DNA of 64,000 bases from an uncultured virus (IMG/VR IMGVR_UViG_3300009993_000002) (IMGVR_UViG_3300009993_000002); one strand, 5' to 3'; counted from the first letter of the stretch, positions 19,865-62,163 are shown. The notes: generated from the sequence alone by a model not told the origin. Numbers and translations: made by a program.

Positions 19865-20806
19865 TCAGGTCACGATCGCGGGAAGGAGGTACTTGTCCTC
19901 CCACGAATACAGCAGGTCGTAGTACCTGCTTCCGAGGTGCCGCGCACGATGTGGCCTAGGCAGCTCGGGAATGCACAAATGGTAACAGTCCTCACCGTTT
20001 CTGGGTACGGGAGTGGCCGTGAACACGTAGTCCTTCAGGAGCATTTCCGGGAACAGGTCACGCACCCACTCCTGGCCGTAGACGTATGGCTCCAGCTCGA
20101 CGTCACGATCGGACGTCATACCGGTCCAAATCATGACCTCTTCCCGGGAGCGAACCGACAGCGTGTCGAGGTCCGGGCCGACCGGAGTGAACTGGACACC
20201 CCGGCCGGGCTCCAGCAGGGCATGCCTGGGGACTCCGGTCAGGCGCGAGGCCATCGCCTCCGGCACGCCCTTGTCGCGGATGATGTCGGCCGCGAAGATG
20301 CGGAACGCGTTGTCCCCCCGGGAGGCGGCCTCCAGTGCCAGGTGCACGATCCGCATGTCGCACGAGCCGGTGACGCGGGTGGCCCGCATCCCCTCGGGGC
20401 GCACCATCCACTTCTGGCAGGTGTTCGCGCCGAGGTCCGTCATCTCCTCGAAGAACGACGAGCTGAACAGCATCAGCGGACTGAGGAGGGTGACGGATGC
20501 CAGTCGGCGCCGCCTGCTCCACCTGTGACGGTTCACGTAAGCCCACCAGGTGAACGAGAGGATCTGCCCCCTCTCGGCCGGGCTGTACACGTGGAGCAGG
20601 TCGACGTCGGCAGGGTTCCAGTTGTAGGGGCTGCGGAACACGGTCCGGTTCGGAGCCCTCATGACGCGCTCCACGGCCCTCAGGAGGTGCGGGAAGCGGT
20701 GCAGTGAGGAAAGGAGCGTCATGGCCCGGGAGACGCGCTCCTGGGGCGTTCCGTGGCGGTCCCCAGGTGGCCTCCCCGGCGGACGCCCGGTCGGCTTTCG
20801 GGCCAC
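19865..20806 (-). CDS. Hypothetical protein, possible DNA-binding (AT-hook-like GRP repeats)
   Basis: N-terminus MARKPTGRPPGRPP; between primase and polymerase genes. Confidence 0.5.
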   Translation of the reverse strand: MARKPTGRPPGRPPGDRHGTPQERVSRAMTLLSSLHRFPHLLRAVERVMRAPNRTVFRSPYNWNPADVDLLHVYSPAERGQILSFTWWAYVNRHRWSRRRRLASVTLLSPLMLFSSSFFEEMTDLGANTCQKWMVRPEGMRATRVTGSCDMRIVHLALEAASRGDNAFRIFAADIIRDKGVPEAMASRLTGVPRHALLEPGRGVQFTPVGPDLDTLSVRSREEVMIWTGMTSDRDVELEPYVYGQEWVRDLFPEMLLKDYVFTATPVPRNGEDCYHLCIPELPRPHRARHLGSRYYDLLYSWEDKYLLPAIVT

Positions 20807-20818
20807 GCTTCCTCCGGG

Positions 20819-23107
20819 TCAGGTCCGGGCGATCGGTACGTAGCGCACCCTTCCGCGTTCCATCGTCTTGTGAATCAGGCCAGCCTTGGCGAGCACATGC
20901 AGGTCCGACTCGATGTCCCTCTCCTGGATCTTAGAGCGGAACCGCGAGTAAATGTCCTGCTCCGTCACGCCTTCCCTCCGTGCCTGGATCGCGGTGAGGA
21001 TTTCGTTCTGACGGGCCGCCCATTCCGAGTGCAGAATCTTGCCCGCCACCCGGGCCGTCGAGCGGTACCACTCCTCGGTCATCTCCATGGCCTTGAGCAG
21101 GTGCGGCATCCGGACCATCTTCTGCCGCTCCGACATGGCGATGAGCACGGCCATCTTCATCATGGAGTCGCCCATGCGGTCGGTCGTGGGAAGCAGCACT
21201 TCAGACAGCTCGTGCCGGTCGGCCGCGTTGTACAGCTCCCACTTGGCCTTCTGGAGCCGGTTCCATGTCGAGTCGTCGAAGGGGATCATCACCGTGTCGC
21301 CGGGCGTGGTCTCCTCCATCCAGAAGGCCCTCGCGGCGAACATGTCGTTGAGCAGTCCCTGCCGCATCACGTCCTCGGAAAGCACCTGGCCGTCGAACTG
21401 CTCGGTGAACATGCTCTCCTCGGTCATCGGAGGCGGGTCGGCCTCCGCGATGAGGAACCGGGCGAGGTGGCCGGACTGGTAGTCGCCGATCGTCAGGTGC
21501 TCGGTGACCTGCTGGAGCGTGCCGCACAGGAACATCAGGAAGTTCGTGCGGATGACCGACAGGTCGCGGTCCTCGTGCTCCTTCAGGTTGCCCACACGCA
21601 GGGCGATACGGACGCGGCCGGTGAACAGCTCCGTCATGTGCTCGCGTACGCCAGCCAGGTAGCGCTTCGCCGCCTGCTCGTACAGCAGACCGTGCGCCTC
21701 GTCCCGGTAGAACACCGAGGAGCGGCCGTTGCGGTCCGGCAGGATGACGCTCAGGGCCTCCGACGTGACGTCGGAGCCGAGCAGGTACGGGAAGGCGTCG
21801 CCGGACAGCTCGTCGAGGAAGTCGACCCACATCATCATCGCGGTCGTCTTCCGGGCCCGCGTCGTCGGGCCGAGGATGAAGAACCACAACGTCAGGTTCG
21901 TGTCGAACTTCGTCGAGCACTTCCCGAATTCGCCGAACACGGCGGACATGATGGTCGCGGCGCCCGCCCGGTGGTAGCAGGACGGCGCGTCGGTGCGCGT
22001 CTGGGCCCACTGCTGATACCGGTCGATGAACGTGTCGTGGGGTACCAGGTCGCGCTCTTCCGGCCGCAGGATCGAGACCGACTCGGCGAACGCGGTGAGC
22101 TTGTTCTCCGGGTTCTCCTCGCTCTCGTCGGCCTCCTTGCGATAGCCGAGGTCGGAGAAGCTGTTGCGTACCGGCTGGTTGTCGGGATGGTCGTACGCCT
22201 TGCAGAGCTGCTGCCACAGCTCCTCTTCGGGGCGGCCGTCGATCTTGTACTTGTTGCACTTCGCCGACCAGGCGACATGCATGGCCGTGATGCGTGAGAC
22301 GTTCAGCCGGGACAGCAGGCTGAGCAGCTTCCACAGCGTCTTCGAGCGGTCCTGGTCCGGCTTCAGGTCGGCCGCGTACAGGTCGTAGACCTCGGGGCTG
22401 GAGCGGAACACCTCGGACGACTCGCGGATGGACTGGGCCGAGAAGTACCAGTCGGACTTCGGCGGCATATCGCTGGCGACGCTCGGCCGGTCCTGCGTGC
22501 TGAAGGGCGGGTACTGGCTGGCCAGCGCCTTCAACGTGTAGGTGGGGCCCATCTTCGGCGTGCCGGGGATCTGCCACGGGGGGCGCCCCTGGCGGGTGTA
22601 CTTGTTGTTCGCGGTGCCCGGCACGCGCAGGAGCTGGCCAGCATCCCACCCACTGGGGTCGCAGCCCTCGCGGACATGCTCGGAGGCGATGGTCCGGGAG
22701 ATGTCGATGAGCTGTTCCGGGTCGTCGGTCTCGGTGACCCAGTACAGGTGGTGCCGACCTTCGGAGGTCTCGACCGCCATGGTCGGCTGCGCCTTCAGCT
22801 TGTCCAGCGGAAGGTGTTCGGCGTCGGCGTACGCGGCCCACTGGTGCGCGATGTTGCTGCCCTTGCGGCTTCCCCGGGTGCGGAAGAGGGCGGGCACCGT
22901 GTAGACGTCCTTGTCGCTGCTGCCCAGGCAGAAGGCGATCAGGTCGTCACGCTGCGAAGGCCATGCGAAGAAAGTGGTCTGCGTCGGACCCGTCTTTTCG
23001 TCCGGGTCGTACACGCCGCCCGGGAACAACGAGACCGCGACGAAGCCCAGATCCTTTCCGTCGTCATTGACCTTCGGAAAGAGGGTGTCGAAGAAGACGA
23101 AGCTCAC
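20819..23107 (-). CDS. RepB-like primase fused to DUF3987-type helicase
   Basis: 'YADA', 'VETSEGRHHLYW', 'LLRVPGTAN'; helicase part 'LGPTTRARKTT', 'YRDE', 'SGHLARF'. Confidence 0.85.
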   Translation of the reverse strand: MSFVFFDTLFPKVNDDGKDLGFVAVSLFPGGVYDPDEKTGPTQTTFFAWPSQRDDLIAFCLGSSDKDVYTVPALFRTRGSRKGSNIAHQWAAYADAEHLPLDKLKAQPTMAVETSEGRHHLYWVTETDDPEQLIDISRTIASEHVREGCDPSGWDAGQLLRVPGTANNKYTRQGRPPWQIPGTPKMGPTYTLKALASQYPPFSTQDRPSVASDMPPKSDWYFSAQSIRESSEVFRSSPEVYDLYAADLKPDQDRSKTLWKLLSLLSRLNVSRITAMHVAWSAKCNKYKIDGRPEEELWQQLCKAYDHPDNQPVRNSFSDLGYRKEADESEENPENKLTAFAESVSILRPEERDLVPHDTFIDRYQQWAQTRTDAPSCYHRAGAATIMSAVFGEFGKCSTKFDTNLTLWFFILGPTTRARKTTAMMMWVDFLDELSGDAFPYLLGSDVTSEALSVILPDRNGRSSVFYRDEAHGLLYEQAAKRYLAGVREHMTELFTGRVRIALRVGNLKEHEDRDLSVIRTNFLMFLCGTLQQVTEHLTIGDYQSGHLARFLIAEADPPPMTEESMFTEQFDGQVLSEDVMRQGLLNDMFAARAFWMEETTPGDTVMIPFDDSTWNRLQKAKWELYNAADRHELSEVLLPTTDRMGDSMMKMAVLIAMSERQKMVRMPHLLKAMEMTEEWYRSTARVAGKILHSEWAARQNEILTAIQARREGVTEQDIYSRFRSKIQERDIESDLHVLAKAGLIHKTMERGRVRYVPIART

Positions 23108-23228: not shown

Positions 23229-24509
23229 TCAGAGGTTCTTGGCGCTCGCGAACTCGTCGAGGCCGCCACCCTGACCGTCCTCCGTCTTCGGAGGCTGCTC
23301 GTTCCACTGCGTCCCCAGCCAGACCGCCGTGATGGTCTGGCCGATGCGCTTGCCCGCGCCGGACCCGAGGACGACGTCCACCGGCACGCCGGGGGCCTTG
23401 TTGAGCGTGATCGCGCCCACGGTGTCCCACGTGATCTCGCCCTTGGCGACGACCGGCTCCGCGTCGACATCGGCCTCGGGGTCGTACAGCTCGACCTCGA
23501 TCTTGCGCTCCGGGACCGGCATGAACTTCGTCTTGAGGTAGTCGGTCGTCTGGACCTGGTCCTCCATCAGGGCGCCGGAGTTCTCGCTGGAGTCGGCGAT
23601 GGCGTAGACCTGGTCCTTGATGTGGACCAGCAGCTTCTCGTTGCCCTCGTAGAAGCTGCCGCTCTCGTCGTTGTAGATGTAGACCTGCGGGTCCTCGTCG
23701 TTCTGCTTCTGGGCCGCGAAGACCGTGACCGGGGCGCCGGTCTCCGGGTTGACCAGGACGGTGACCGGCTGGTTGTTGGCGTCGAGGCGCGGGCGCGGCT
23801 TGTTCTTGGTGGACAGCGTGATCTGCGCCATCACGATCTTGTCCTCCATGCGCTTGGCGATGACCGGCATGGTCTTCAGGTTCACCGCCTCGCCGGGCTG
23901 CGTCGCACCGGCCGCCATCCGCAGGGAGCGGCCGTCCTCGTTCTTGTAGCCCGTGCGGCCGGACCGGTTCTGCTTGAAGAGCGCCGTCTTGATCGTGAGG
24001 GCCGGGACCTCGATCTCGTACGGGTACCGGCGCTGGCCGTACTTCGGGGCGACGTGGTTCGCCTCGCAGATGAAGTACGGAAGCTCGTGCTCGCGGATGA
24101 CCTCGGTGGCGCCCGCAGCGATCTGCGCCTCGACCTGCTCGAAGGGCACGTAGACGCGCTTCTTGCCGCTCTCCGGGTCGACCTTCACCGCGAGGCAGAC
24201 CTTGGAGGAGAGGCGCGGGGTGTGCTTCTCCTTGAAGGCCGCCGTGGTGATGCGGACCGGGACCCACATCTTGTCCTGGAGGCCGACGTCGAGCGGGTTG
24301 ACGTAGGTGCTGCCGGACTCGTAGACCTGCACCGCCTCGTCGGTCTCGTCCTCCGACAGCTCCATGTCGGCGTCGTCGAAGAGGTCGTCCAGCTCGGTGT
24401 CCAGGTCGATGCCGTCGAGGACGTCGCCGCCCGGGACCGCGTCGGCGGGCTCACCCTGTGCACCCTCGGCGGGCTGGTTGAACGGGTCGAACTCGGTGTT
24501 GTCGCTCAT
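23229..24509 (-). CDS. Acidic hypothetical protein, candidate ssDNA-binding protein
   Basis: Strong codon bias, acidic N- and C-terminal tails, between RecT-like and primase genes. Confidence 0.45.
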   Translation of the reverse strand: MSDNTEFDPFNQPAEGAQGEPADAVPGGDVLDGIDLDTELDDLFDDADMELSEDETDEAVQVYESGSTYVNPLDVGLQDKMWVPVRITTAAFKEKHTPRLSSKVCLAVKVDPESGKKRVYVPFEQVEAQIAAGATEVIREHELPYFICEANHVAPKYGQRRYPYEIEVPALTIKTALFKQNRSGRTGYKNEDGRSLRMAAGATQPGEAVNLKTMPVIAKRMEDKIVMAQITLSTKNKPRPRLDANNQPVTVLVNPETGAPVTVFAAQKQNDEDPQVYIYNDESGSFYEGNEKLLVHIKDQVYAIADSSENSGALMEDQVQTTDYLKTKFMPVPERKIEVELYDPEADVDAEPVVAKGEITWDTVGAITLNKAPGVPVDVVLGSGAGKRIGQTITAVWLGTQWNEQPPKTEDGQGGGLDEFASAKNL

Positions 24510-24544
24510 GGTGTCCTTGTCCTTGTCCTTGTGGTCCGCGTTTT

Positions 24545-25705
24545 TCAGGCGCGGAGGGATTTGACGATGTTCTCCAGGTGAGCGCTCAGCGGACCCTGGG
24601 CTTCACCCTGGCCCACCGCCTCTTCCCCCTTGCCCGCCTCGTTCGCCGCCTTCTGGACGGCGTAGATGCGGGAGATCTTGTCGTCGGTGGACAGCCTTGC
24701 GTCCCCGGCGGTGCGCTCGGCCCATTCGGCGAGCTGCTGCGGCGTGCCCTGCTCGACCGCCCGGGTGGCGGCCTCGGTCACAAGTCGCTGCTTCTTGCTG
24801 CCCCCCTTGGTGACGTCGATGACCTCACCGTGGATCGGCCGCTCGTTCTCGTCGACCTCGGCGCCCAGTTCCTCGGGCGGGTACAGGGCGTTCGACATGG
24901 CGAGCTGGTCGTCGTCATCCTCGGAGAGGACCAGACCCATCTCGCTCAGGATGTTCTTGACGCCCAGGATCACGTCAATCGCACCGTCGCGGACCACGCC
25001 GGACTTGCAGCGGTTCTTCAGCATCTCGGGGCCGAACTTCTGCCAGACGCCCTTGCCGCCGAGGCCGATCTGCTGAGCACGGGCCATCGTCCACGTGGAC
25101 TCGAACCTGACCAGCTTGGTCAGGTCGAAGTCGGTGGTGGAGACCGTCTTGCGCAGCTCGTCGAAGTCGTACTGGCCGTGCAGGTCGGCGAGCTGCTTGC
25201 GCAGGCCCGCAAGTTCCTCCTCGGACGGCGTCTCGCCGAACGAGTCGAGAGTGCGCAGGTCTTCGATCCGCTCCAGGAGCTGGCCGCGCTGCATCCTGTA
25301 CAGCCGGTCCATGTCCTCCAGCCGGGCGACCTTCAGGCGACGCTCCTGCTCGCGCATCATCTCGAAGCGCTGAAGCTGATCGGCGGTCGTCTTGCGCACC
25401 AAGACGGCGGTCGCCTTGATGGCGTTGCCCTCGACGTGCACGGTGTGCCCGGCGGCGATGGCCAGGGCCTGCATCAGGTGGGCCGACATGCCCGCCTTGA
25501 GGCGCCCGTCGCCGTCCTTGAAGACGAAGATGTGCTGGAAGGCGGACATCGGATCGATGCCCAGTGCGGCGCCGAATCGCATCATGTACTCGACGGATGC
25601 CGCATCACCGGCGATGTGCTCCGGCATCAGCTTCGACTTCGAAAGCCGAGCTGCTTCGACGGGATCCACCTCTCCGCCGGTCTTACGAGGGACAAGCTCA
25701 CTCAT
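24545..25705 (-). CDS. RecT/ERF-like single-strand annealing protein
   Basis: 'SKLMPEH...GAALGIDPMSAFQHI...MSAHLM' and 'WTMARAQQIGL...WQKFGPEMLKNR'. Confidence 0.75.
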   Translation of the reverse strand: MSELVPRKTGGEVDPVEAARLSKSKLMPEHIAGDAASVEYMMRFGAALGIDPMSAFQHIFVFKDGDGRLKAGMSAHLMQALAIAAGHTVHVEGNAIKATAVLVRKTTADQLQRFEMMREQERRLKVARLEDMDRLYRMQRGQLLERIEDLRTLDSFGETPSEEELAGLRKQLADLHGQYDFDELRKTVSTTDFDLTKLVRFESTWTMARAQQIGLGGKGVWQKFGPEMLKNRCKSGVVRDGAIDVILGVKNILSEMGLVLSEDDDDQLAMSNALYPPEELGAEVDENERPIHGEVIDVTKGGSKKQRLVTEAATRAVEQGTPQQLAEWAERTAGDARLSTDDKISRIYAVQKAANEAGKGEEAVGQGEAQGPLSAHLENIVKSLRA

Positions 25706-25789
25706 GCGTGCCTCGTTTTCAGTGCTTGTTCTCGTGTCGTTTTTAGTATCTTGTGGCGTCGTGTTCTTGTAGCTCCACTCTACCACTAA

Positions 25790-26632
25790 CTAGCCGCGTA
25801 GCCTAGGCCGAATCGAGCAGGGGAAGCACTCGGGGTGCGCCGTCAGCTCGCCGACCTTGCCCGCCCTGACGAGAGACGCCAGGTGAGCGGCCCTGTTCAG
25901 AACGGCTTGAGCCACCTCCGGCCGGTAAGAACAGGAGGCCACCCAGATGTCGCTCACGTTGTTCGAGTCCCGGGGGATGAACGCGAGGACAGCGTAGTCC
26001 GCCTCGCGCCCCATCGCCCGCAGTCCGTACAGGTAGAGCATCGTCTGGCCCATGTACTCCTGCGGGACCCCACCGGAGTGCTCCTTCGAGTTGGCCATCA
26101 GCATGACCAGCCTGCCCATGTCGGACTCCTGGAGCATGCCCGCGCGGTCCATGGCCGTCAGCCTGGTCAGCTCCTCGCGCTCCGGCGCGGTGAGCCCCTG
26201 CGTGTACGAGCCGGGACCCGCCTGTTTCCGGTAGCCCTGGAGCTTCTTCATGTCGGTCGTCTTCCAGTCGACCAGGGTCTTCTTGCGCGGGAGGAAGACG
26301 TCCACGTGCCCCTTCACCAGCCCGAGGCCGGGGACCTCCGCGATGTCCACGGTGATCTCCTGCTCGGCGTGCGCGTACACCTGCGGAAGGTCTCGCTCCA
26401 GCTTCTCGTGCACGGCTGTTCCCAGCCACGCCTTGAGGCTGAACCCGCGATCGGTGCTGGCCCCCATGTTCAGCGAGGCGGAGATCTTCCGCGCCACACA
26501 CAGGTCGCACTTGTCGGCCAGATCGCTGGGCCCGGGGGCCCGCTGCTGGTCGCGCGCCGAGGGTTTCGTGATGGTGGCCACCGCGATTCCTTCGACGAAA
26601 GTGCGAATATTTTCCTGATCTTCTGCTGTCAT
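25790..26632 (-). CDS. Cas4-like PD-(D/E)XK exonuclease
   Basis: 'GPSDL..CxxC', 'GTAVH', 'GHVD', 'DWKT', 'QTMLY', C-terminal CxxC. Confidence 0.8.
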   Translation of the reverse strand: MTAEDQENIRTFVEGIAVATITKPSARDQQRAPGPSDLADKCDLCVARKISASLNMGASTDRGFSLKAWLGTAVHEKLERDLPQVYAHAEQEITVDIAEVPGLGLVKGHVDVFLPRKKTLVDWKTTDMKKLQGYRKQAGPGSYTQGLTAPEREELTRLTAMDRAGMLQESDMGRLVMLMANSKEHSGGVPQEYMGQTMLYLYGLRAMGREADYAVLAFIPRDSNNVSDIWVASCSYRPEVAQAVLNRAAHLASLVRAGKVGELTAHPECFPCSIRPRLRG

Positions 26633-28199: not shown

Positions 28200-28709
28200 T
28201 TACAGCGGCTGATTTTCCGGCCCCTGGTTCTCGCTGAGTTCGAAGGAGATCTTCCATCCGAGGATTCGCAGGGCGGCCTGGATGGTTCCGATCGGGTGGT
28301 CGGCGATGTGCCGGGCGAGCGCGTCGGCCGACGGGTTGTCGGGCTCCTCCGTGTTCAGTTCGAACCTACGCCACGCCTCTGACATCGCCCTGTCGGCGCC
28401 CTCCTGGAAGGCGCGGTCCAGGATGTCGGCCAAGTGGCCGTGGGTGGCGTTCAGGGCCGCCGTCAGGCGCCGCTTGGCCTCTCCTTCGGTCATGTAGCCC
28501 GGCAGTCCGGGGAAGGCCGCGTCGTACGCCGCGTTGATGATGGAGGCAGGCAGTGCGCTGGCCTTGGAGCCGACCGGGACGATGGCGGCGATGGCCTTGC
28601 CGTGCCGGGTCAGATAGGAGATCTTTCCGTCACCGTGCGCCTCGTCGGCCAGCTTGCCCAGCTTGGCCCTCGCGTTCTCCAGCGACACGTACTCGGGCTT
28701 GCTGCTCAT
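28200..28709 (-). CDS. Protein with N-terminal Phd/YefM antitoxin-like domain
   Basis: 'VSLENARAKLGKLADEA...YLTRHGKAIAAIVPV'. Confidence 0.7.
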   Translation of the reverse strand: MSSKPEYVSLENARAKLGKLADEAHGDGKISYLTRHGKAIAAIVPVGSKASALPASIINAAYDAAFPGLPGYMTEGEAKRRLTAALNATHGHLADILDRAFQEGADRAMSEAWRRFELNTEEPDNPSADALARHIADHPIGTIQAALRILGWKISFELSENQGPENQPL

Positions 28710-34222: not shown

Positions 34223-34495
34223 CTATTCCGTTTCATCCTCTTGGCCCGGAACGAAGTCGCCGGGCCACATGCCGAAGAAGTCGGCGAGCTGGTCCAGCTC
34301 ATCAGCATCCCACGTACCTGCCTTCAGCTTGCGAGGCATGTACTCCGGTGTGACGCCGAGATGAGCTGCCAGCTCATTCAGTTTCTTTGTGTACACCTTG
34401 CGGACCGTGCTTCCGGCGAGACCGTCTCGGTCCTCGCTGACCTGGATCGCCAGCAGGTTTTCGACGGTCTGGCTGATGGTCGCGCCCGTGGTCAT
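34223..34495 (-). CDS. HTH DNA-binding protein (XRE/BetR-like)
   Basis: 'ELAAHLGVT...WDADELDQLADFFG'. Confidence 0.7.
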   Translation of the reverse strand: MTTGATISQTVENLLAIQVSEDRDGLAGSTVRKVYTKKLNELAAHLGVTPEYMPRKLKAGTWDADELDQLADFFGMWPGDFVPGQEDETE

Positions 34496-34576
34496 CACAG
34501 TGGTACCTCCTCGTGAACTAGTCACTTAAAGATACCTGCGTTTTCCTCTCTTCTGCGATTCTATCACCGAGAGAGG

Positions 34577-35162: not shown

Positions 35163-35288
35163 CTACTTCCAGCGGGGCCACTCCTGGTAGATCGCCAGGT
35201 GGCCGAGAATGAATAGAACGGAGAATATAACCGCCGCGACAACGGCGAACACCAGCTCCTTCACGACCCGCCTGGCGATCTCTTTCAC
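35163..35288 (-). CDS. Small membrane protein
   Basis: 41-aa ORF VKEIARRVVKELVFAVVAAVIFSVLFILG..., overlapping the upstream stop. Confidence 0.4.
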   Translation of the reverse strand: MKEIARRVVKELVFAVVAAVIFSVLFILGHLAIYQEWPRWK

Positions 35289-35470
35289 TGCTGGTACATC
35301 CGCTTCACGTCGTAGACGTCGTCGAGTCGGTAGCGAATCCCCTGGGCCGTACGTACGGGCCGGATCAGATTCTTCGCCAGAACGAGGCGAGCGCGGCGCT
35401 CCTTCATTCCCATGCGGGCGGCGGCCTCGGAAATGTCCACCAGGACATCGATGGGGGCAGGGTTCGTCAT
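35285..35470 (-). CDS. Small MerR/excisionase-like HTH protein
   Basis: 'VDISEAAARMG...RYRLDDV'. Confidence 0.6.
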   Translation of the reverse strand: MTNPAPIDVLVDISEAAARMGMKERRARLVLAKNLIRPVRTAQGIRYRLDDVYDVKRMYQQ

Positions 35471-35474
35471 GTGA

Positions 35475-35678
35475 TCACTCTGCCACGTTTTCCCCCGCGT
35501 TGACCAGCAGCTCATCCACCGCAGCCAGGGCAAAATTCCGCACGACATCCACCTCGTGCTTCAGGCCGAGGATCTTGCGGGCCCGCTCGATCCGCTGCTT
35601 CTCGGATTCCGTGAAGCGGGCGACGATTCGCTTGTCTCGCTTCTCGTCGCCCTGCTCCGACTTGGGGCGTCCGGACAT
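35475..35678 (-). CDS. MobC/MobA-like ribbon-helix-helix protein
   Basis: 'GRPK...RDKRIVARFTESEKQRIERA'. Confidence 0.6.
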   Translation of the reverse strand: MSGRPKSEQGDEKRDKRIVARFTESEKQRIERARKILGLKHEVDVVRNFALAAVDELLVNAGENVAE

Positions 35679-46055: not shown

Positions 46056-46119
46056 TTTCTCGCTTCTCCCTTTTCCGAAAGCCCCGATTTTTGGAACTCC
46101 GTGTGGGGCGTTACGCATG

Positions 46120-46736: not shown

Positions 46737-46840
46737 GCCGTCACCTTTCCAGTGATCGATGTCGGACATCAGCGTACGGCGAAGGGGCACCGGAAGATGC
46801 TCCGGTGCCCCTTCGGGTAGGCCACTTCGGGTGGCCTCGT

Positions 46841-48289: not shown

Positions 48290-48368
48290 AACCCCCTCAT
48301 CTCCTCTCCGAATGGCCCGCCGGAACGGTTCCGACGGGCCGCTTTCGTTTCGCTTTGCAGGCCACTTT

Positions 48369-48614
48369 TCAGTGGCCTGGGACCCACTTTCGAGGGTCGT
48401 TGTGATTCTCCCAGGAGGGGACCACGATCGGGTCCCCGTACCTGTTGTAGCCGATGTGCGTGCCCGGCGGGATGAGCGTGTTGCCGATCGACGGGCCGCC
48501 GCACGAGAGGCAGGGATCCCCCTCCAGGCGGCCGTGCTCGCAGCGGTGCAGATCCAGGAGCAGCTTGGCCAGGCGGCTCGTCTCGACCTCTTGCGGGGTC
48601 GGCGACTCAGCCAT
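48369..48614 (-). CDS. Small Cys/His-containing hypothetical protein
   Basis: 'CEHGR...CLSCGG'. Confidence 0.5.
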   Translation of the reverse strand: MAESPTPQEVETSRLAKLLLDLHRCEHGRLEGDPCLSCGGPSIGNTLIPPGTHIGYNRYGDPIVVPSWENHNDPRKWVPGH

Positions 48615-48816
48615 GAGCGGCTTCCGGAGTCCGCTTCGAAACGGGCGAATCGGTCTGAACGCCCTTGAATCCGGTACAGGCGCAGACCCCCCGGCCCTGC
48701 GCCAGCTTGTGACGGCAGGCCGTCCGGGATCCCTTCAGGTGCGTTCCGGTGTGCTCGTGTCGGGGGTGCCCGCACCCCGAGGGGCCGGTGCAGAGCGTCT
48801 TCTCGTACAGACCCAT
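48607..48816 (-). CDS. Small Cys/His-rich protein
   Basis: 'C....CGH....H......C......C.C..F'. Confidence 0.5.
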   Translation of the reverse strand: MGLYEKTLCTGPSGCGHPRHEHTGTHLKGSRTACRHKLAQGRGVCACTGFKGVQTDSPVSKRTPEAAHG

Positions 48817-48839
48817 GGCGTTCTCCTCGTTCCTGCTGG

Positions 48840-49109
48840 TCAGCGTTCGGCGGCCAGCTCGTTCAGCTTCACTGCCAGCTTCGCATTCAGGTCCAGCGCC
48901 TGTTCGTAGGTCAGCTCGGCGAAGATGCCGGGGTCCTCGTCGATCTGGACTTCGCTCAGCGGTACCGTCAGGCGGTCGCCGAAGCCGGTCTTCACCGGAC
49001 CGAAGCCGCCGATGACGATGTGGCACCCCGGGGTCATGCTCTTCTCTACGACGAGCCGGGCCTTCCGGTCGATGTCGCCCAGGCTGTTCAGGGCGCGGAT
49101 CTCGCTCAC
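48840..49109 (-). CDS. Hypothetical protein
   Basis: GGAGG RBS, coupled. Confidence 0.5.
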   Translation of the reverse strand: MSEIRALNSLGDIDRKARLVVEKSMTPGCHIVIGGFGPVKTGFGDRLTVPLSEVQIDEDPGIFAELTYEQALDLNAKLAVKLNELAAER

Positions 49110-49447
49110 TTCTCCTCCTCGGTGTTCACCCAGGTCCGCCCCAGGTAGTCCTTGTGCGGGGCCGTATGGCCCCGCTCCGGCTCTTCGCAGGACTCTCCGT
49201 CGTCGGGATGCTGCGCGTCGCAGAAGAGCAGTACCCCGTGCTCCTTGAAGGCGGCGACGATTGTGGGCTCCGCGTCGTACACGCCGACCGTCGCCTCCGC
49301 GTTGCCCCAGCCGAACCCCAGCAGACCGCCGATCAGCTTGGAGGCGATGCGCTGAAGAGCGGCCTCGCCGATCTGGTCCTTGAGGGGCAGTAGCTCGTCC
49401 ATCACGGGCTCGAACACGGCAGTGCCCGATTCGTACTTTGCTCCCAC
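49106..49447 (-). CDS. Hypothetical protein
   Basis: AGGAG RBS. Confidence 0.5.
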   Translation of the reverse strand: MGAKYESGTAVFEPVMDELLPLKDQIGEAALQRIASKLIGGLLGFGWGNAEATVGVYDAEPTIVAAFKEHGVLLFCDAQHPDDGESCEEPERGHTAPHKDYLGRTWVNTEEEK

Positions 49448-49512
49448 GTGCTCTCCTTGTTCCGAAGGTTCTTACTTGGGTTCGCCATGTAATCCAAGGC
49501 GAACCCCTTCCG

Positions 49513-49731
49513 TCATGCCGTCTCTACGCGGGTTACGTGGTAGATGCCCGCGTAGATCTCACGCACATCCTCCGCGCTGTCCACCTCGTCCAGCTCGACG
49601 AGGAAGGTGTGGTGCTCGCCCGTCACGTCGGTGCAGGGTTTGCCGTTGACCGGGCACGGCCCGGTCTTCTTGTCGCGCGGGTTGTGCTCGGGGTTCTTGG
49701 CCAGCCTCACCGTGACCACGAAGGTGGCCAT
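49513..49731 (-). CDS. Hypothetical protein
   Basis: Coupled to the NlpC/P60 gene. Confidence 0.5.
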   Translation of the reverse strand: MATFVVTVRLAKNPEHNPRDKKTGPCPVNGKPCTDVTGEHHTFLVELDEVDSAEDVREIYAGIYHVTRVETA

Positions 49732-50198
49732 CAGCCGTTCACCCGGCCGATGTAGACCTTCCGGCCGCCGTACTTGTACTCGGAGATCGGGGCGACGACG
49801 ACCTTGTAGCCCCGGTAGGAGCCGGAGTTGGCGTTCACGATCTTGTTGTTGCCGACGTAGATGCCGACGTGCTTGATGTTCCTCGACGAGGTGCCGAAGA
49901 AGACCAGGTCACCCTTGGCGCGCTTGCTCCAGGAGATGTGCGTGGACTTGTTGTACTGGCCCTGCGCCGTGGCCGCGAGCTTCTTGCCGTGCTTCTTGTA
50001 CGAGTAGTACGTGAGGCCCGAGCAGTCGAAGTAAGTCGGGCCCTTGCCGCCCGCGCGGTACGGGCTGCCCTTCTTGTCGAGGGCGGTATTCAGCGCCTTG
50101 GTCCGTATCGGGGTGGCCGCTTCGGAGCTGGGGGCCAGCGTCAGCACGAGACCGCCGCTCAGGGCTGCGGACAGGGCGACGGAGGTCAGCTTGTTCAC
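49731..50198 (-). CDS. Second NlpC/P60 secreted peptidase
   Basis: Signal peptide; 'GSPY', 'FDCSGL', 'GDLVFF', 'HVGIY'. Confidence 0.9.
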   Translation of the reverse strand: MNKLTSVALSAALSGGLVLTLAPSSEAATPIRTKALNTALDKKGSPYRAGGKGPTYFDCSGLTYYSYKKHGKKLAATAQGQYNKSTHISWSKRAKGDLVFFGTSSRNIKHVGIYVGNNKIVNANSGSYRGYKVVVAPISEYKYGGRKVYIGRVNG

Positions 50199-50256
50199 GG
50201 GGATTCTCCTTGGATTCTGAGGTTCTTCCGGATGTTCGAGCTGGAATTCTGGAGAA

Positions 50257-50724
50257 CTACCAGCTCATTCCTTCAGGACTGAAGAAGACGGGGATGCCCG
50301 CCTTCCGGGCTCGTTTCACGCAGTCGGCGGTCCCGTGAGAGGGGTGTTCGCCGGGCGGACACCAGCGGCCGTTCTTCCGGCACGGGTTCGCCCACGCCAT
50401 GACGGCCTGGGCTCCGGCATCGACCATGTCCTGGTTGCGCAGGTTGCCCGCGTAGTTGCCGTGTGTGTCCCAGTCGGGCAGGTACGGCCGTTCCAGGACC
50501 AGCTCGTCGATGAAGTGGGAGGACCAGTCGCTCACGATCCTGTCGGCGCCCCGCCTGTTCTTTCCGTTGCGGATGAGCAGGCGGCCGTGGCGTTTCAGCA
50601 GACGCGTCAGCGGCAGGTGGACCGACCTGCGGTCCACCCAGTCCCTGGAGCCGGTAATGATCAGCTCGAAGTACGGCAAGTTGATGACCAACTTGCTTGT
50701 CTCTAGCTGCGATTGGGCGTCCAC
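50257..50724 (-). CDS. SLOG-family (DUF2493/YspA-like) protein
   Basis: 'IITGSRDW', 'GAD', 'AGNLRNQDMV', 'SHGTADCVKRA..AGIP'. Confidence 0.8.
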   Translation of the reverse strand: MDAQSQLETSKLVINLPYFELIITGSRDWVDRRSVHLPLTRLLKRHGRLLIRNGKNRRGADRIVSDWSSHFIDELVLERPYLPDWDTHGNYAGNLRNQDMVDAGAQAVMAWANPCRKNGRWCPPGEHPSHGTADCVKRARKAGIPVFFSPEGMSW

Positions 50725-50959
50725 GATCCTCCTTTCAAACGGCCTAGGCCGATCCTACCCGATGGCCTACTTCCGAGGTAGGCCACTTCCTGGGACTGGT
50801 TGCCCCGTTTCGCCCCGATTCGGAGATGCTTCGAATCACAACGAATGCTCCTGAACTAGACATACCGGACCACTTTTTATGGATCTCCGACACGCTACAG
50901 CAGGACATACTGGACTATTTTGGACAGGGCGAATTGGCATGCTTGCGTAGTTTGTCTTG

Positions 50960-51069
50960 TACCGTTCGGTAACTTCTCTTCCTGGATTCGGCCCAGTTCC
51001 GAGCCGATTCTCGTTACCTCCGAGTAACTTCTCTTCGCTTCGCCCGGGAAGGAAAGTTACCGAACGGTA
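50960..51069. repeat. Perfect 16-bp inverted repeat enclosing internal hairpins (candidate structured RNA)
   Basis: TACCGTTCGGTAACTT 50960-50975 / AAGTTACCGAACGGTA 51054-51069. Confidence 0.7.
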
Positions 51070-55221: not shown

Positions 55222-55532
55222 CCACTCCTTCTGCGCATCGCCGTACTCTTGATCACTGAACCCTGACGGACCGTGGACTCGCCCTGCCTGCCGTCGTTCA
55301 TGCGCAGGTAGTCCTTCACGCCGGAACCCCCGGACGCCGTGCTGCCGGGAAGCGTCTTGCGCTCCCCCCATGGCAGGTCCGGATGTTCCACCCTGGCTTT
55401 CGCCAGGCGCGTGGTGATGGTCTGCGGAGCGCAGTCGAACTGGACCGACAGATCGAGTTGGGACAGGCCCTCCAGCCAAGCCAGCGCGATCTTGCGGTTG
55501 TCGAGGTCCGGCCGCTTTACGCGTCGGTCCAT
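55218..55532 (-). CDS. Small HTH protein
   Basis: 'GLSQLDLSVQFDCAPQTITTRL'. Confidence 0.55.
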   Translation of the reverse strand: MDRRVKRPDLDNRKIALAWLEGLSQLDLSVQFDCAPQTITTRLAKARVEHPDLPWGERKTLPGSTASGGSGVKDYLRMNDGRQGESTVRQGSVIKSTAMRRRSG

Positions 55533-56059
55533 CGCACCCCCTCGTTCCGGCCCGCCTCGTGCTCCTTCAGCTCGGGGGTGAGGGAAGGGTTCACGATCCG
55601 CAGGATTTCGTAGATGTCGGCAGGTCGCAGGTGTGGCCACATCATCTGCCGGGCCTCCTTGTACTTGCGCTCCAGGCGCTCCCTCGTGGCCCCGTCCAGG
55701 TGCTTGAGGCGGTCGGGCAGGGAGTTGTGGGCGTTGTCGCTCGTCTTCACCAGCATGGCCGCGTAGCCACCCTGGATGACCCGCTCGATCTGCTCGCGCT
55801 TCGTCGAGCCCGGCACCTTCGTAACCGCGTCGATGATCTCCAGGGAGATCTCGGTAACGCCCGCCGCCCGCAGAGACTCCAGGGTCTCGTCGGTGTCCTC
55901 GACGACATCGTGCAGCAGCCCGGCAACCCGCACGGGTTCCGAGAACGACGCGAGGCCAGTGGAGACTGCCCGCGCGTGCTCGATGTACGGAACGCCGTTC
56001 TTGTCGAACTGGTCCTTGTGCGCGTTGGCCGCGATGATGTCGGCTTCCCAAGTGCGCAT
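55517..56059 (-). CDS. HD-domain hydrolase, RelA/SpoT (Mesh1/SAH)-like
   Basis: 'HKDQ...G.PYIEH...AGLLHDVVEDT...VK.SD..HN'. Confidence 0.85.
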   Translation of the reverse strand: MRTWEADIIAANAHKDQFDKNGVPYIEHARAVSTGLASFSEPVRVAGLLHDVVEDTDETLESLRAAGVTEISLEIIDAVTKVPGSTKREQIERVIQGGYAAMLVKTSDNAHNSLPDRLKHLDGATRERLERKYKEARQMMWPHLRPADIYEILRIVNPSLTPELKEHEAGRNEGVRWTDA

Positions 56060-59669: not shown

Positions 59670-59905
59670 TTCTTGCGCTCCGGCAGCACCTCGGCGACGA
59701 CCAGCGCGGCGCGATTGACGCCCCGGCGGATCGGACCGACCTTCATGGCCCCGATGCCCACGGCGGTCAGGGCGACAGCCGTCGCGGCACCCAGCGTCGG
59801 ATCGCCGGTCACGCCAGATGCCACAGCACCCAGCGCCGTGGACACGCCGATCGCCGTCACGTCGTGAATCACGAGGTGTTCGTCGGCGCCCTCGATGCCC
59901 TTCAT
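59666..59905 (-). CDS. Small membrane protein
   Basis: Two hydrophobic segments. Confidence 0.5.
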   Translation of the reverse strand: MKGIEGADEHLVIHDVTAIGVSTALGAVASGVTGDPTLGAATAVALTAVGIGAMKVGPIRRGVNRAALVVAEVLPERKK

Positions 59906-60105
59906 GGCTTTTCTTCCCTTCCGTTCGCGATCCGCTCGATCGCCTCATGCAGCTTCGGTGATGTGGAGTAGACGACCAGGTAGGCCATCATGAAAAGAAC
60001 GAATGCGGCGGCACCGAAAAGAATGGCCAGCACGAATGCGACGGCCACGCTCGGCAGGATTGCGATCACGATGTATCGCACCTGATTTTTCACCGACGCC
60101 CCCAT
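59902..60105 (-). CDS. Small membrane protein
   Basis: Two TM segments. Confidence 0.45.
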   Translation of the reverse strand: MGASVKNQVRYIVIAILPSVAVAFVLAILFGAAAFVLFMMAYLVVYSTSPKLHEAIERIANGREEKP

Positions 60106-60235
60106 ATCGTTCGAGAGGATCCGAGAATCACCATCAGGCAGGCAATCGCCCAGATCATCGAACAGAGAAAGCCCATTTCCTCGTTGATGAGGAGTGCAGG
60201 GAGCAGCACGAAGAGCCATCTCGCCAGGTACAGAT

Positions 60236-60553
60236 TCACTGCTCGACTGTTCCCTCCGGGCTGAAGAGCGCGCCCTGATCCTGGTGGCCACCCGGGGGCT
60301 TGCCGCCGTTTTCGATGAGGGCCCAGTGCGCCGCAGGATCACTCAGGCTGAGCCGGTGGGCCAGCCACTCGCGGAGCAGCGGAAGCTGCTCCTGTGACCA
60401 GCCGAGCGTTTCGTTACGGCCCTTCTTGTCGTGCACGACGTGTACGACCGGCATCGGGAAAGCCCCGAAGGGGCGGTCGACCCAGTTCGTAACCGTCTGC
60501 GGTGTGACGCCCAGGTGCTTGGCCACGTAGATCTGGCTGTACAGCTTCTCCAC
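60236..60553 (-). CDS. HTH DNA-binding protein (Cro/Xis-like)
   Basis: 'YVAKHLGVTPQTVTNW...FPMP'. Confidence 0.7.
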   Translation of the reverse strand: MEKLYSQIYVAKHLGVTPQTVTNWVDRPFGAFPMPVVHVVHDKKGRNETLGWSQEQLPLLREWLAHRLSLSDPAAHWALIENGGKPPGGHQDQGALFSPEGTVEQ

Positions 60554-60567
60554 GTTCCTCTCCTTTC

Positions 60568-60598
60568 GGCCTAGGCCAGCTTACCACAAACCTAGGCC
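60568..60598 (-). promoter_or_regulatory. Two CCTAGGCC operators flanking a -10 element
   Basis: Copies at 60568-60577 and 60591-60598 around TGG-TAAGCT on the - strand. Confidence 0.6.
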
Positions 60599-60606
60599 GC
60601 TACGCC

Positions 60607-61005
60607 TCAACCCTGTTGAGATTGAGGCAAGTTGGGGTGACGCGCCTCCAGGAGGTCGGCCACCTCGTTGAGCGTGTCGACCGAGTACGGTTCGAGACCG
60701 TCCTTGCCGTGGCCGACCAAGCGCGCCTCGATGCCCAGATCCCGCAGCCGGGCCTTCGCCAGGGTTCGCCGCCGCTCTTCGGCCACCTCGGTCTTCGTCT
60801 TGAAGTAGAGGGTGTAAGCGCCCTGGAGGGCGTGCCGGGTTTCCCTGCTGAAGGGGACCGGCTTGAATCCGTACGGCGACCCGATGAAGACCCGCTTCGT
60901 GCCGATCTCCGTGATCGGGCACTCCTTCTGAGAGTTGCCGTCGAAGAGGATCACCGTGCTGCCGACCGTAAGGACTTCCCCGCCGGTCTCAAAACTGCGT
61001 GCCAC
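60607..61005 (-). CDS. Hypothetical protein
   Basis: AAGGA RBS. Confidence 0.5.
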   Translation of the reverse strand: MARSFETGGEVLTVGSTVILFDGNSQKECPITEIGTKRVFIGSPYGFKPVPFSRETRHALQGAYTLYFKTKTEVAEERRRTLAKARLRDLGIEARLVGHGKDGLEPYSVDTLNEVADLLEARHPNLPQSQQG

Positions 61006-61059
61006 TTGCTTCCTTTCCGGATGCGGGGCGGCCCTCCGGCCGCCCCGGCTGCTGTCCGA

Positions 61060-62082
61060 TCAGCCCTCGATGACCGTGTCGATCACATAGAGGGACTTCG
61101 AGGTGTTGGGCCGGACCTCGCGCACGGGCTTGCCCGTCGCGAGCCGAACCGCCTCCCACGCCATGTTCACACCCGTCTTCCAGCAGTGGAACAGGCCGTC
61201 CGAGCCGCGCGGGTTGACCTCCAGCAGGACGGGCTGGCCGTCGAGCATGCGGGTCTGCACGTTGCACAGGTACAGGATGTCGAGCTTCGTCGCCATCGCG
61301 CGGGCGATGTGGTGGATCTGCTCGTCGTCGGAGAAGGTGCGCGCGTACTTGCCCTTGATTCGGGCGATGGTGGTGACCACCTCGCCGGTCGGGGCGCGCA
61401 GCACGTCCACGCTGGCCTCCGGCTCGTCCATGACGGGGGCCACGATCAGGGGAGGCAGTTTTTCGCCCTCGGCCTCCATCGCGATCAGGGCCTGCTCGTA
61501 GTCGTCCACCTGCACCGTGCGCCGGGGCGAGACGAAGAGGTCGGCCGGACCGGGCCGGTTGCGCTTCAGCACGCGGAAGCCGTCGGCCGCCCAGCCCGTG
61601 TCGGGCTTCACGCAGACCTCGCGGCCGTCGGCCTCGATGGTCTCGAACGCCTCACGGAAGGCGGCGGAGTCTGTCACCTGGAAGTGCTGCGGGACGAACA
61701 GCCCGGCCTCCTTGGCGGCGGCGTACGTGGCCGTCTTGGAGTCGGCGATGGCCGCACCTGTCACGCTCGGCTGGGACAGCAGGGTCACGCCCAGGGCCTC
61801 GAACTCGTGCTGGTAGGTAGCCAGCACGTGGAACCGGTCGGACGGGATGAGGATGTCGATGCCGTTGGCCTGCGCGAAGTGCAGCGCCCACTCGGCGTAG
61901 TCCTCGTCGCTCACATCACGGTCCGGCTCGGTTCCGGCGATGTCGGCCTTGGCGAGCGCGGGTCCCATCTGCGGGTGGGTGGCGTAGACGGTGACCTGCT
62001 CACCGTCGGGGTTGTCGTGCAGCATGTCGACCAGGTGCGCCTTGTAGGTGCGGGCCCGGTTGATCCATACGCGTACGCTCAC
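61060..62082 (-). CDS. ATP-grasp ligase (Ter-associated type)
   Basis: N-terminus 'RVWINR...VYATH'; 'CVKP..G..A.GFRVL'; 'SVD'; 'LLEVNPR'. Confidence 0.8.
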   Translation of the reverse strand: MSVRVWINRARTYKAHLVDMLHDNPDGEQVTVYATHPQMGPALAKADIAGTEPDRDVSDEDYAEWALHFAQANGIDILIPSDRFHVLATYQHEFEALGVTLLSQPSVTGAAIADSKTATYAAAKEAGLFVPQHFQVTDSAAFREAFETIEADGREVCVKPDTGWAADGFRVLKRNRPGPADLFVSPRRTVQVDDYEQALIAMEAEGEKLPPLIVAPVMDEPEASVDVLRAPTGEVVTTIARIKGKYARTFSDDEQIHHIARAMATKLDILYLCNVQTRMLDGQPVLLEVNPRGSDGLFHCWKTGVNMAWEAVRLATGKPVREVRPNTSKSLYVIDTVIEG

Positions 62083-62163
62083 GTCTTCTCCTTTTCCGTT
62101 TCTCAACATACCCAATATTAGCGGAAGTTGAGGGCTGTAAGCAACCTAGGCCACTTACGGGAA

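Follow-up and report, generated by a model that had tools for sequence, protein, structure and literature searches.

Regulators of the GntR/HutC subfamily such as DasR of Streptomyces coelicolor and NagR/YvoA of Bacillus subtilis combine a winged-helix domain (wHTH) with a UTRA domain, act on sugar-use genes, and have a site on the regulator's own promoter. Their dre operators are CTAG-centred palindromes with GG at positions -5 and -4 from the dyad. In NagR, Arg38 reads G-5 and Arg48 reads G-4, together with Gly69 of the wing, and positions -3 to -1 are touched via the backbone only (PMC4333415). The Kor/TraR-type GntR repressors of Streptomyces conjugative plasmids and integrative elements (KorSA of pSAM2, TraR of pSVH1) are described as autoregulating repressors of mobile-element functions (PMC8584621, PMC4447253). 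Among phages, the published account of the Cluster A mycobacteriophages has one phage repressor acting at many short intergenic stoperators spread genome-wide (PMC9283540). That repressor is monomeric, lies outside the GntR family, and is without a ligand domain, and the stoperators are 13-14 bp long, asymmetric, and oriented with transcription. In the Streptomyces phage phiC31, a conserved inverted repeat recurs at many early promoters as the operator of the c-gene repressor; this protein belongs to yet another family, its repeat is 17 bp, and the phage is temperate and integrating.

The window analysed here, the whole 64,000-nucleotide stretch of DNA from an uncultured virus, is that of a cluster BM Streptomyces siphophage, with relatives Frankenweenie, JustBecause, and Satis whose genomes are about 185-200 kb. 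In this family of large Streptomyces phages, many blocks of leftward genes have a 12-base palindrome, YGRCCTAGGCCR, at their starts. It probably serves as operator for a dimeric repressor of GntR/HutC type that the phage itself encodes. Each winged-helix domain would read one half-site, with Arg34 and Arg44 contacting the guanines at -5 and -4 in the manner of NagR and DasR on dre. About 18 leftward operons per genome (eight regions in the window) have a site on their core promoter or start region, where a bound dimer would block initiation until a small molecule on the UTRA domain released it. The predicted regulon takes in polA and a RecT-like gene, genes for wall hydrolases and membrane proteins, a small HTH gene, and the divergent promoter of the regulator itself. 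DNA binding and any ligand response we infer, and repression is read from the position of the sites. The proposed design of one repressor serving many dispersed sites is shared with Cluster A, and a repeated inverted-repeat operator at many promoters with phiC31; a control network of these large phages built on a GntR protein and a palindrome is, however, undescribed.

Comparison across 63 sites supports the 12-bp motif as real. In the window, the 8-mer CCTAGGCC has 13 strand matches against 1.35 +/- 1.23 expected from 100 dinucleotide-preserving shuffles, none of which reached 13, and the 10-mer GGCCTAGGCC has four against 0.07. CTAG is itself four times rarer than expected, with 22 occurrences in the window against 88.6 +/- 8.3, a scarcity that the first-pass annotation had suspected; nine of the 22 lie inside copies of the motif. 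As the 8-mer does not exceed its reversed word in the phage genomes (24 strand matches against 49 in Frankenweenie), the enrichment is one over a CTAG-aware expectation and over the host. All nine window sites that the annotation had listed are present, one of them displaced by a single base (given as 25801; the 10-mer begins at 25800). Four are perfect copies of GGCCTAGGCC, and five combine one perfect with one degenerate half (GGCA, AGCC, GACC, AACC, and AACC). Across the 63 sites, the free half-site reads GG 21 times and GA about 30 times, and the degenerate half is found on either side relative to the gene, a pattern suggestive of dimer-type symmetry. The BM sites differ from stoperators in being palindromic, in standing at operon heads, and in having degenerate halves that face both ways. 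Outside the core, only a pyrimidine at -6 (125/126 half-sites) and the matching purine at +6 are constrained, and the longer 16-mer consensus proposed earlier, AGTGG...CCACT, is not supported.

Proposed operator sites of the window and the two candidate regulators (positions in the window)
Feature	Position	Strand	Context
Weakest site, GGCCTAGGCA	19953-19962		Inside 3' end of gene 19865-20806
Half-degenerate operator, AGCCTAGGCC	25800-25809		Over last codons of Cas4-like gene, before weakly RecT-like gene
Half-degenerate operator, GACCTAGGCC	39717-39726		Upstream of SLT transglycosylase and NlpC/P60 genes (Pfam SLT, NLPC_P60)
Perfect operator, GGCCTAGGCC	41812-41821		Divergent region between GntR gene and leftward small gene plus membrane-protein genes
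GntR/HutC-type regulator (wHTH + UTRA), proposed binder	41845-42579	+	Pfam GntR and UTRA
Perfect operator	46133-46142		Upstream of membrane-protein gene 44862-about 46054
Perfect operator	50741-50750		Heads SLOG/DprA-like gene (50257-50724) and NlpC/P60 hydrolase operon
Small HTH protein P0002	60236-60553	-	Weak Pfam HTH_3/YdaS matches, below cut-off; predicted regulon member
Perfect operator	60568-60577		Abuts -10-like TAAGCT (60583-60578); 3 nt before SD of 60236-60553
Half-degenerate operator, AACCTAGGCC	60589-60598		21 bp centre-to-centre from 60568-60577
Half-degenerate operator, AACCTAGGCC	62143-62152		After terminator-like hairpin (62195-62160), before ATP-grasp gene 61060-62115

The sites stand at the heads of leftward operons, and with the GntR start set to 41845, following Frankenweenie gp109, seven of nine are intergenic, as the first-pass annotation had counted (six of nine with raw GC3 gene calls); for the seven, with 10.4% of the DNA non-coding, P = 3.9e-6. 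The -10 of Streptomyces promoters takes the form TAnnnT, on which the -10 and -35 readings given here are based. Relative to such elements, placement varies from the promoter spacer, to the -35, to the -10 and start region. At 46133, the operator sits in the spacer of the minus-strand pair TTGACA (46149-46144)-18-CAGAGT (46125-46120), and TTGACA plus operator recur in Frankenweenie, JustBecause, and Satis. At 41812, it overlaps TTGTGG (41825-41820)-17-CATGCT (41802-41797), also on the minus strand, and covers the -35, as happens at a tRNA promoter in the relatives. Both hexamer pairs had been named before and read as written. A sigma-70 scan of E. coli type, run around seven of the operators, gave 0 promoter-like hits. 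In the minus-strand order at 50741, a hairpin (50790-50762) and TAGGAT (50757-50752) are followed after 1 nt by the operator and, 6 nt on, by GAAAGGAGG and GTG; Pfam matches downstream are to YAcAr/SLOG and NLPC_P60. The order of TAAGCT or TAGACT, operator, and SD at the small HTH gene recurs in all three relatives and in three more distant phage-like records. The second site there, 60589-60598, has no counterpart in Frankenweenie, JustBecause, or Satis and is specific to the window; G003:C6 also has a pair with 21-bp spacing, at 126729/126750.

The remaining sites show comparable arrangements. That at 39717, flanked by TTGACT (39732-39727) and TAGAGT (39711-39706), and that at 25800, 17 nt upstream of TAGAGT (25782-25777), are both kept in three of three relatives; the RecT-like gene beyond the latter is a weak match (phrog_4171, E 5.6e-6). 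Between the weakest site, at 19953, and the polA ATG downstream (near 19849) there are about 104 nt; this site is kept in Frankenweenie and JustBecause and lost in Satis (TGCCAAAGGCC). The two in-coding sites do precede the polA and RecT-like genes by about 100 nt, as had been noted. The ATP-grasp gene beyond the 62143 site (Pfam ATPgrasp_Ter, 92.7 bits) is missing here in the three relatives, where the Ro-like gene comes immediately after the ProQ-like gene.

Across the larger set, a site directly follows a TAnnnT hexamer in 12 of 63 cases against 0.52 expected per offset, and many sites are only 3-8 nt upstream of the SD. This proximity bears on whether the word might act in some way other than as a repressor site, as a promoter or discriminator element for RNA polymerase and sigma factor, as an RNA-level 5' element, or as a leftover of restriction avoidance. 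Since many sites lie between a -10-like hexamer and the SD, transcripts may include part of the word. The motif also contains CCTAGG, and CTAG words are strongly avoided elsewhere. Against such roles, the word is palindromic with its degenerate half on either side, and its position relative to the -10-like hexamer ranges from upstream of the -35 to +1; in at least seven of the 18 site families the word precedes that hexamer and would therefore be absent from the RNA. A loopless perfect 10-nt palindrome cannot form a hairpin, and restriction avoidance predicts loss, whereas conservation is observed at matching intergenic positions. We regard these roles as highly improbable, and the placement fits operators rather than promoter elements.

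That conservation extends over the three relatives, whose genomes hold 18, 19, and 17 sites at positions matching those of the window. Of 21 orthologous comparisons that start from window sites, 20 keep the 8-mer, and identity is 0.99 in the motif columns against 0.66 for the +/-30-nt flanks, a difference that is partly by construction because the families were picked for having the motif. The sites thus appear to be real and selected. The 96.7-140 kb region of Frankenweenie carries no site despite many operons.

The product of 41845-42579 is most likely the binder, to judge from its domains and residues. Its identification as a GntR-UTRA protein in the first-pass annotation is borne out by Pfam, strongly for UTRA (PF07702, 58.8 bits against a cut-off of 23.8, residues 96-231) and narrowly for the GntR wHTH (PF00392, 28.4 bits against 27, residues 8-65). 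Its best relatives in the PDB are DasR (9i0v/4zs8, E 2e-8) and NagR/YvoA; similarity to either is only of the order of E 1e-8. In a phmmer alignment to 2wv0, R34, R44, and G65 pair with R38, R48, and G69 of NagR, and GG stands at -5/-4 of the motif, at the same dyad distance as the bases read by NagR. The protein is 80-88% identical across seven BM phage records, and its recognition helix, TSR(V/A)TIDK, is nearly invariant, differing as TSRVTIDK from the TSRTTVRQ of DasR and NagR. The perfect site that had been placed just upstream of the gene lies 24 nt before its GTG start, within a block, CAGCATGACACAAT(A/T)CGGCCTAGGCCACAAG, kept in eight of eight viral contigs; the perfect-site block is conserved in 17 of 17 BM-like loci. 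Against the published HutC consensus NyGTMTAKACNy (PMC4494728), GCCTAGGC matches at six of eight core positions (M, TA, K, and both outer G/C), and carries C and G where the GT/AC signature wants T and A.

The resemblance to the DasR operator noticed in the annotation amounts to eight of ten core positions of dre as quoted there, with the arginine-read GG kept and C replacing T at -3 (GGCC for GGTC). In principle, DasR or a paralogue could bind these sites as a HutC-type regulator of the host and let host amino-sugar status gate phage transcription directly, with or without the phage GntR, the more so as backbone-only contact at -3 to -1 might allow DasR to tolerate C at -3. All 126 half-sites, however, have C at -3, a count built into the choice of search word, and the canonical dre core GGTCTAGACC is absent from the window, Frankenweenie, and JustBecause and occurs once in Satis, at 27483, away from any motif site. 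Nor does a Streptomyces assembly show sign of a host regulon, as 44 of its 103 strand matches lie on a 185-kb phage-like contig and the other 59 in about 9.3 Mb compare with about 2000 for the reversed word. A host regulator also leaves the phage's own HutC protein, with a site at its promoter, unexplained, and we consider it very unlikely to be the binder. The phage protein differs from DasR and NagR in being virus-encoded and predicted to act on about 18 phage promoters.

The association between regulator and motif also points to the phage protein. In 18 of 18 loci whose homologue has R34, R44, and a helix of the form T[ST]RxT[IV]D[KR], GGCCTAGGCC occurs upstream at a distance of no more than 220 nt; these loci are mostly close relatives that represent perhaps two or three independent lineages. 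The palindrome is found upstream of none of 77 other homologues, in most of which R44 is replaced (by Q, N, H, and others); in place of the palindrome these homologues have other CTAG-centred words, for example CTACTAGTAG. One motif-positive homologue is only 42% identical, and the upstream block of locus L101 looks homologous rather than convergent. The nearest cellular homologues (40-44% identity) are on plasmids and small contigs, beside Prim-Pol, D5_N, DUF2637, and ParA genes, and we assign them tentatively to the Kor/TraR type. Like the phage protein, they have a strongly conserved UTRA motif, GSRELAAER, and conserved CTAG-centred palindromes near their own genes (about 100 nt upstream); unlike it, they have helices such as VAQTTANR with R44 replaced, different words (CTACTAGTAG, GCGCTAGTGG), and one or few sites per element.

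Another DNA-binding protein of the phage could be the reader of the motif instead, mainly the small HTH protein that the annotation had named as an alternative. A perfect site abuts the -10-like hexamer of its gene in seven of seven homologous loci, so that autoregulation fits as well as for GntR; two sites precede it in the window, and its homologues are confined to BM-like phages, the carriers of the motif. As both genes are in every BM-like genome searched, presence and absence cannot separate them. Yet the putative recognition helix of the small protein varies among seven homologues (TPQTVTNW, SKSTVTNW, KWNEVVGW, KRRDVLRW) whereas the motif stays constant, which makes it a poor candidate; its Pfam HTH matches are below cut-off, and we know of no link between this fold and a CTAG-centred palindrome of 10-12 bp. 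HTH_26-like and MerR-like ORFs are also found in the window (34223-34525 and 35285-35548), but the other HTH genes there have no site nearby. Binding by any of these proteins is unlikely.

For the phage GntR, the nature of the ligand may be approached through the UTRA domain. The NagR residues described for the sugar phosphate (GlcN-6P or GlcNAc-6P) are Thr90, Arg133, Arg135, Ser165-Ile166-Tyr167, and Tyr228 (PMC4333415). In a phmmer alignment that is weak in this domain the pocket is only partly kept (Thr90 to Ala89, Arg133 to Arg132, Arg135 to Asn134, S165-I166-Y167 to A164-T165-P166), and a small shift would pair R130/R132 and S169 with it instead. The lifestyle switch raised in the annotation is speculative. 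It is conceivable, if doubtful, that the GntR protein is a virus-encoded metabolite sensor by which such phages persist quietly as separate replicons in a carrier state, until a host ligand would free some 18-30 promoters of early and replication genes together. In that case a derivative of the cell wall or of amino sugars might be the signal, given the three wall hydrolases in the predicted regulon and a plasmid TraR that is reportedly peptidoglycan-binding. The regulator gene, one of few rightward genes within the leftward block, is divergent from the leftward blocks in the way of an immunity gene. In bacterial assemblies, contigs of 129 kb and 253 kb carry two further BM-like homologues, at 68-69% identity, and a homologue at 43% is on a contig of 272 kb; one complete BM-like genome forms its own circular-looking contig, with identical 127-bp ends, in the assembly of a Streptomyces isolate.

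The nine places in the window at which the 8-mer CCTAGGCC occurs are a real and conserved set of candidate operators. All nine had been listed in the first-pass annotation and all were recovered, with 13 strand matches to the 8-mer compared with 1.35 +/- 1.23 in shuffled sequence, four occurrences of the perfect 10-mer GGCCTAGGCC against 0.07 expected, and GGCCTAGG on one strand common to every site. Under an order-2 Markov model, GGCCTAGGCC ranks second among the over-represented 10-mers of the window and is the sole palindrome among the top words. The top-ranked word, TTGTCCTTGT, is unrelated to the operator, with 16 matches at one mismatch or fewer scattered over both strands, along with the short 6-nt tandem run at 24511-24532. 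The scarcity of CTAG described in the same annotation also holds, 22 occurrences being observed where 88.6 are expected, and nine of the 22 lie inside the motif. Positions 1-19,900 hold no site. Six of the nine sites are intergenic by raw GC3 gene calls; with the start of the phage GntR gene placed at 41845, the number becomes the seven proposed earlier (P = 3.9e-6, given 10.4% non-coding DNA).

A confounding issue for any naive claim of enrichment is that the reversed word GGATCCGG is commoner than the motif in the relatives Frankenweenie, JustBecause, and Satis (in Frankenweenie, for example, 49 vs 24 strand matches). As this word contains no CTAG it is unsuitable as a null, and the enrichment holds relative to strong CTAG avoidance. 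Comparison with a host supports selection on the motif. Of the 103 strand matches in the assembly of Streptomyces cucumeris NEAU-Y11, 44 fall on one 185-kb contig resembling the phages of cluster BM and 59 in the other ~9.3 Mb, and GGATCCGG occurs ~2000 times in the assembly. A 260-kb relative with terminal repeats carries 53 strand matches.

Counts taken from the whole genomes of the three relatives give 18 sites in Frankenweenie, 19 in JustBecause, and 17 in Satis, with 6, 6, and 5 of these perfect, respectively. Counterparts at the same gene junctions were found for seven of the nine window sites, and the 8-mer is retained in 20 of 21 orthologous comparisons, the exception being the polA site, which lies within coding sequence and is lost in Satis. 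The sites unique to the window are those at 60589 and, ahead of an ATP-grasp gene, at 62143. When the 18 site families are aligned on the motif, its ten columns average 0.99 in pairwise identity (in part by construction, as the families were picked by the motif), the adjacent ten 0.75, and those further out ~0.60. The ATP-grasp gene, flanked by the ProQ-C-like and Ro/TROVE genes, is absent from this junction in all three relatives, and the insert brings its own hairpin and operator (62143-62152), as if new cargo had been recruited into the regulon. The right arms of Frankenweenie, JustBecause, and Satis also contain another family of CTAG palindromes, ccgg..(A/C)(C/G)CCTAGGGCg.ctcc, with about three mostly intergenic copies per genome; the window has none.

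The operator itself is 12 bp long, YGRCCT|AGGCCR, as defined by 126 half-sites pooled from 63 sites. Half-site positions -1 to -3 are TCC, as set by the search word; position -4 is G in 95 and A in 31, position -5 is G in 113, and position -6 is T in 74, C in 51, and A in 1. From -7 to -12 the base composition is almost even, so that the longer 16-mer consensus suggested at first, AGTGGCCTAGGCCACT, is not sustained. Where a half is degenerate it almost always reads TGACC, and it may point toward or away from the downstream gene; this fits a symmetric dimer rather than a directional promoter element. The centres of the two operators at 60568-60598 are separated by 21 bp, or two helical turns, and the arrangement recurs at a different gene in a distant relative (locus L142, G003:C6:126729-126759); such pairs suggest cooperative binding of two dimers.

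Placement relative to promoters varies in register from -35 to +1, which is how the operators of a repressor typically look. The hexamers given in the table are our own readings, made with the Streptomyces TAnnnT form of the -10 box; an E. coli-type scan, not tuned to Streptomyces -10 boxes, returned no promoter-like sites in 39500-51000 and 59800-62600, and terminator-like matches in the same regions were not above shuffles. A TAnnnT hexamer abuts the motif at 12 of 63 sites, representing about four site families, against a mean per offset of 0.52. In the relatives, many right-arm sites are situated 3' of a GC-rich hairpin and 5' of a Shine-Dalgarno sequence (SD). A role for the word at the RNA level is argued against by its position upstream of a -10-like box in at least seven families. 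The 96.7-140 kb stretch of Frankenweenie is rich in operons yet free of sites, and the word thus marks one promoter class, not all. If Frankenweenie gene 290 began where annotated (165106), it would enclose a terminator-like hairpin, an operator (165064-165073, or 25064-25073 of collected locus L138), and an SD; the true start looks like the GTG after that SD, near 165046.

Operator sites with their promoter context, and other features of the window and its relatives
Feature	Position	Strand	Context
Operator site	46133	minus-strand reading	within 18-nt spacer of TTGACA...CAGAGT, then ~60-nt leader
Operator site	39717	minus-strand reading	between TTGACT and TAGAGT
Operator site	25800	minus-strand reading	ends 17 nt ahead of TAGAGT
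Operator site	41812	minus-strand reading	overlaps TTGTGG of leftward pair; 24 nt ahead of GntR GTG
Operator site	50741	minus-strand reading	1 nt after TAGGAT, 6 nt before SD
Operator site	60568	minus-strand reading	abuts TAAGCT, 3 nt before SD
ATP-grasp gene	61060-62115	-	Pfam ATPgrasp_Ter, 92.7 bits
Accessory gene	28200-28709	-	Phd/YefM-like N-terminus, below cut-off
Accessory gene	55517-56059	-	HD/SpoT-like hydrolase
Accessory gene	60607-61005	-	phage ProQ-C-like protein
Accessory gene	62229-63920	-	Ro/TROVE protein
SLT protein gene	39045-39707	-	lytic-transglycosylase domain (Pfam, E 3e-9)
Tandem run	24511-24532		6-nt units GTCCTT/TTGTCC, between genes 23229-24509 and 24545-25786
Second CTAG family, Frankenweenie	181294, 182599, 193629		
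Second CTAG family, JustBecause	165134, 166442, 177697		
Second CTAG family, Satis	169533, 170544, 180708		

The binder of this operator set is most likely the HutC-type GntR protein that the phage itself encodes (41845-42579; the counterparts are gp101 in Satis and gp98 in JustBecause). It scores 28.4 bits for the GntR domain (cut-off 27) and 58.8 bits for the UTRA domain. Its closest solved relatives are DasR (E 2e-8), two uncharacterized HutC proteins, and NagR/YvoA. In the NagR-DNA structure, Arg38 contacts G-5, Arg48 contacts G-4, and the wing, with Gly69, reaches G-7, with positions -3 to -1 contacted via the backbone only (PMC4333415). The phage residues R34, R44, and G65 align at these three NagR positions, and the phage word has GG exactly at -5/-4, the bases read by Arg38 and Arg48. 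The phage core GCCTAGGC fits the HutC operator consensus NyGTMTAKACNy (PMC4494728) at six of eight positions, and its sole difference from dre, the operator of DasR/NagR, is at -3. Position 42 of the helix-turn-helix (HTH) is D48 in the phage protein, Arg in DasR/NagR, and Asn in many plasmid homologues; the base preferences given for this position in the same source, Asp for C and Asn for A, are suggestive of it as the reader of base -3, an idea that is kept here as such, with the counterexample that A at -3 is also seen with Ala there. The GntR recognition helix is nearly invariant.

The small HTH protein P0002 (60236-60553), which the first-pass annotation had allowed as the binder instead, presents a perfect site on its own promoter in all seven homologous loci, and its homologues are confined to these phages. 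In contrast to the GntR helix, however, its putative recognition helix varies between homologues (TPQTVTNW, KWNEVVGW, or KRRDVLRW) with no change in the DNA word, so that P0002 is better taken as a member of the regulon than as its binder.

The assignment to GntR can also be followed across 95 homologue-encoding loci, drawn from four genomes, 9 viral or isolate contigs, 54 genome contigs, and 28 metagenome contigs. GGCCTAGGCC lies no more than 220 nt upstream in all 18 loci with Arg at both positions (R34 and R44) and the helix T[ST]RxT[IV]D[KR], the 18 representing few independent lineages; one of them, L101, has just 42% identity and a further perfect site at a distance of 2 kb. The remaining 77 homologues all lack GGCCTAGGCC upstream. 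In most of these R44 is replaced (Q, N, H, others), and most have other CTAG-centred words, such as CGCTACTAGTAGCG ~100 nt upstream. Searches for more divergent GntR loci with the P0070 and P0069 queries in viral contigs gave one contig already known and nothing, respectively, and P0070 gave nothing in metagenomes; a profile scan gave 36 loci, L101 included.

The motif-negative homologues are found on plasmids and small contigs, beside Prim-Pol, D5_N, DUF2637, and ParA genes. From this gene context they are probably members of the Kor/TraR group, the repressors of mobile elements in Streptomyces (PMC8584621, PMC4447253). GntR/UTRA homologues of plasmids and integrative elements (L043-L097, L104-L129) have conserved CTAG palindromes of their own (CGCTACTAGTAGCG, CGCTAGTACTAGCG, GGACTAGTCC) ~100 nt upstream, in many cases as multiple copies spaced 12-17 bp from one another. 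The pattern resembles an operator code, centred on CTAG and shared across the family, whose details change with the recognition helix.

No canonical dre core occurs in the window, Frankenweenie, or JustBecause. In a weak alignment of the UTRA domain, the phosphate and sugar contacts of NagR are only partly kept, which speaks neither for nor against an amino-sugar phosphate effector. Phage and plasmid homologues alike keep the GSRELAAER motif and an RxR strand, a conservation that suggests a shared ligand or allosteric core.

An 8-kb stretch around the GntR gene matches seven Streptomyces phage records, all of them siphophages of cluster BM, which have prolate heads and genomes of 184-200 kb. 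Frankenweenie is the best match (83% identity over 92%), followed by JustBecause/Kela and Satis/Kradal/EhyElimayoE/Quantum. The 185-260-kb Streptomyces phages of this group are almost without annotation, and 7.7% of Satis proteins match earlier actinophage proteins (PMC6687918). Neither regulator nor motif is mentioned in that announcement of Satis and JustBecause or in the available text of PMC10652959, and no published description of the pair was found in the literature on these phages, on GGCCTAGGCC, or on phage-encoded GntR. The pair is a known kind of regulator and operator in an undescribed viral setting. The operator provides a first map of one transcription class, with its co-switched operons and promoter locations. 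A UTRA repressor as phage master regulator, if true, would mean that the virus reads a host small molecule, and the three cultured relatives make such sensing directly testable. With a specificity that departs from dre by one base in each half-site, the pair would also provide an orthogonal repressor/operator set for engineering in Streptomyces.

Some of these phages may persist in a carrier state or as episomes, as phage-like contigs occur in bacterial assemblies. A BM-like genome of complete length, 185,382 bp, is a separate contig (Scaffold14; L140/L141, G003:C6) of the NEAU-Y11 isolate assembly, and its two ends share an identical 127 bp, an assembler-type circular overlap. Contigs of 129 kb and 253 kb in bacterial assemblies carry two further BM-like GntR homologues (68-69% identical), and one of 272 kb carries a 43% homologue.

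Within the window, the tail genes run rightward over 1-17,200, and nearly all genes from 17,900 onward are leftward, the exceptions being the GntR gene and the lysis cassette. The name 'glycosyltransferase' given to gp104, the Frankenweenie counterpart of the SLT protein, is probably an annotation error.
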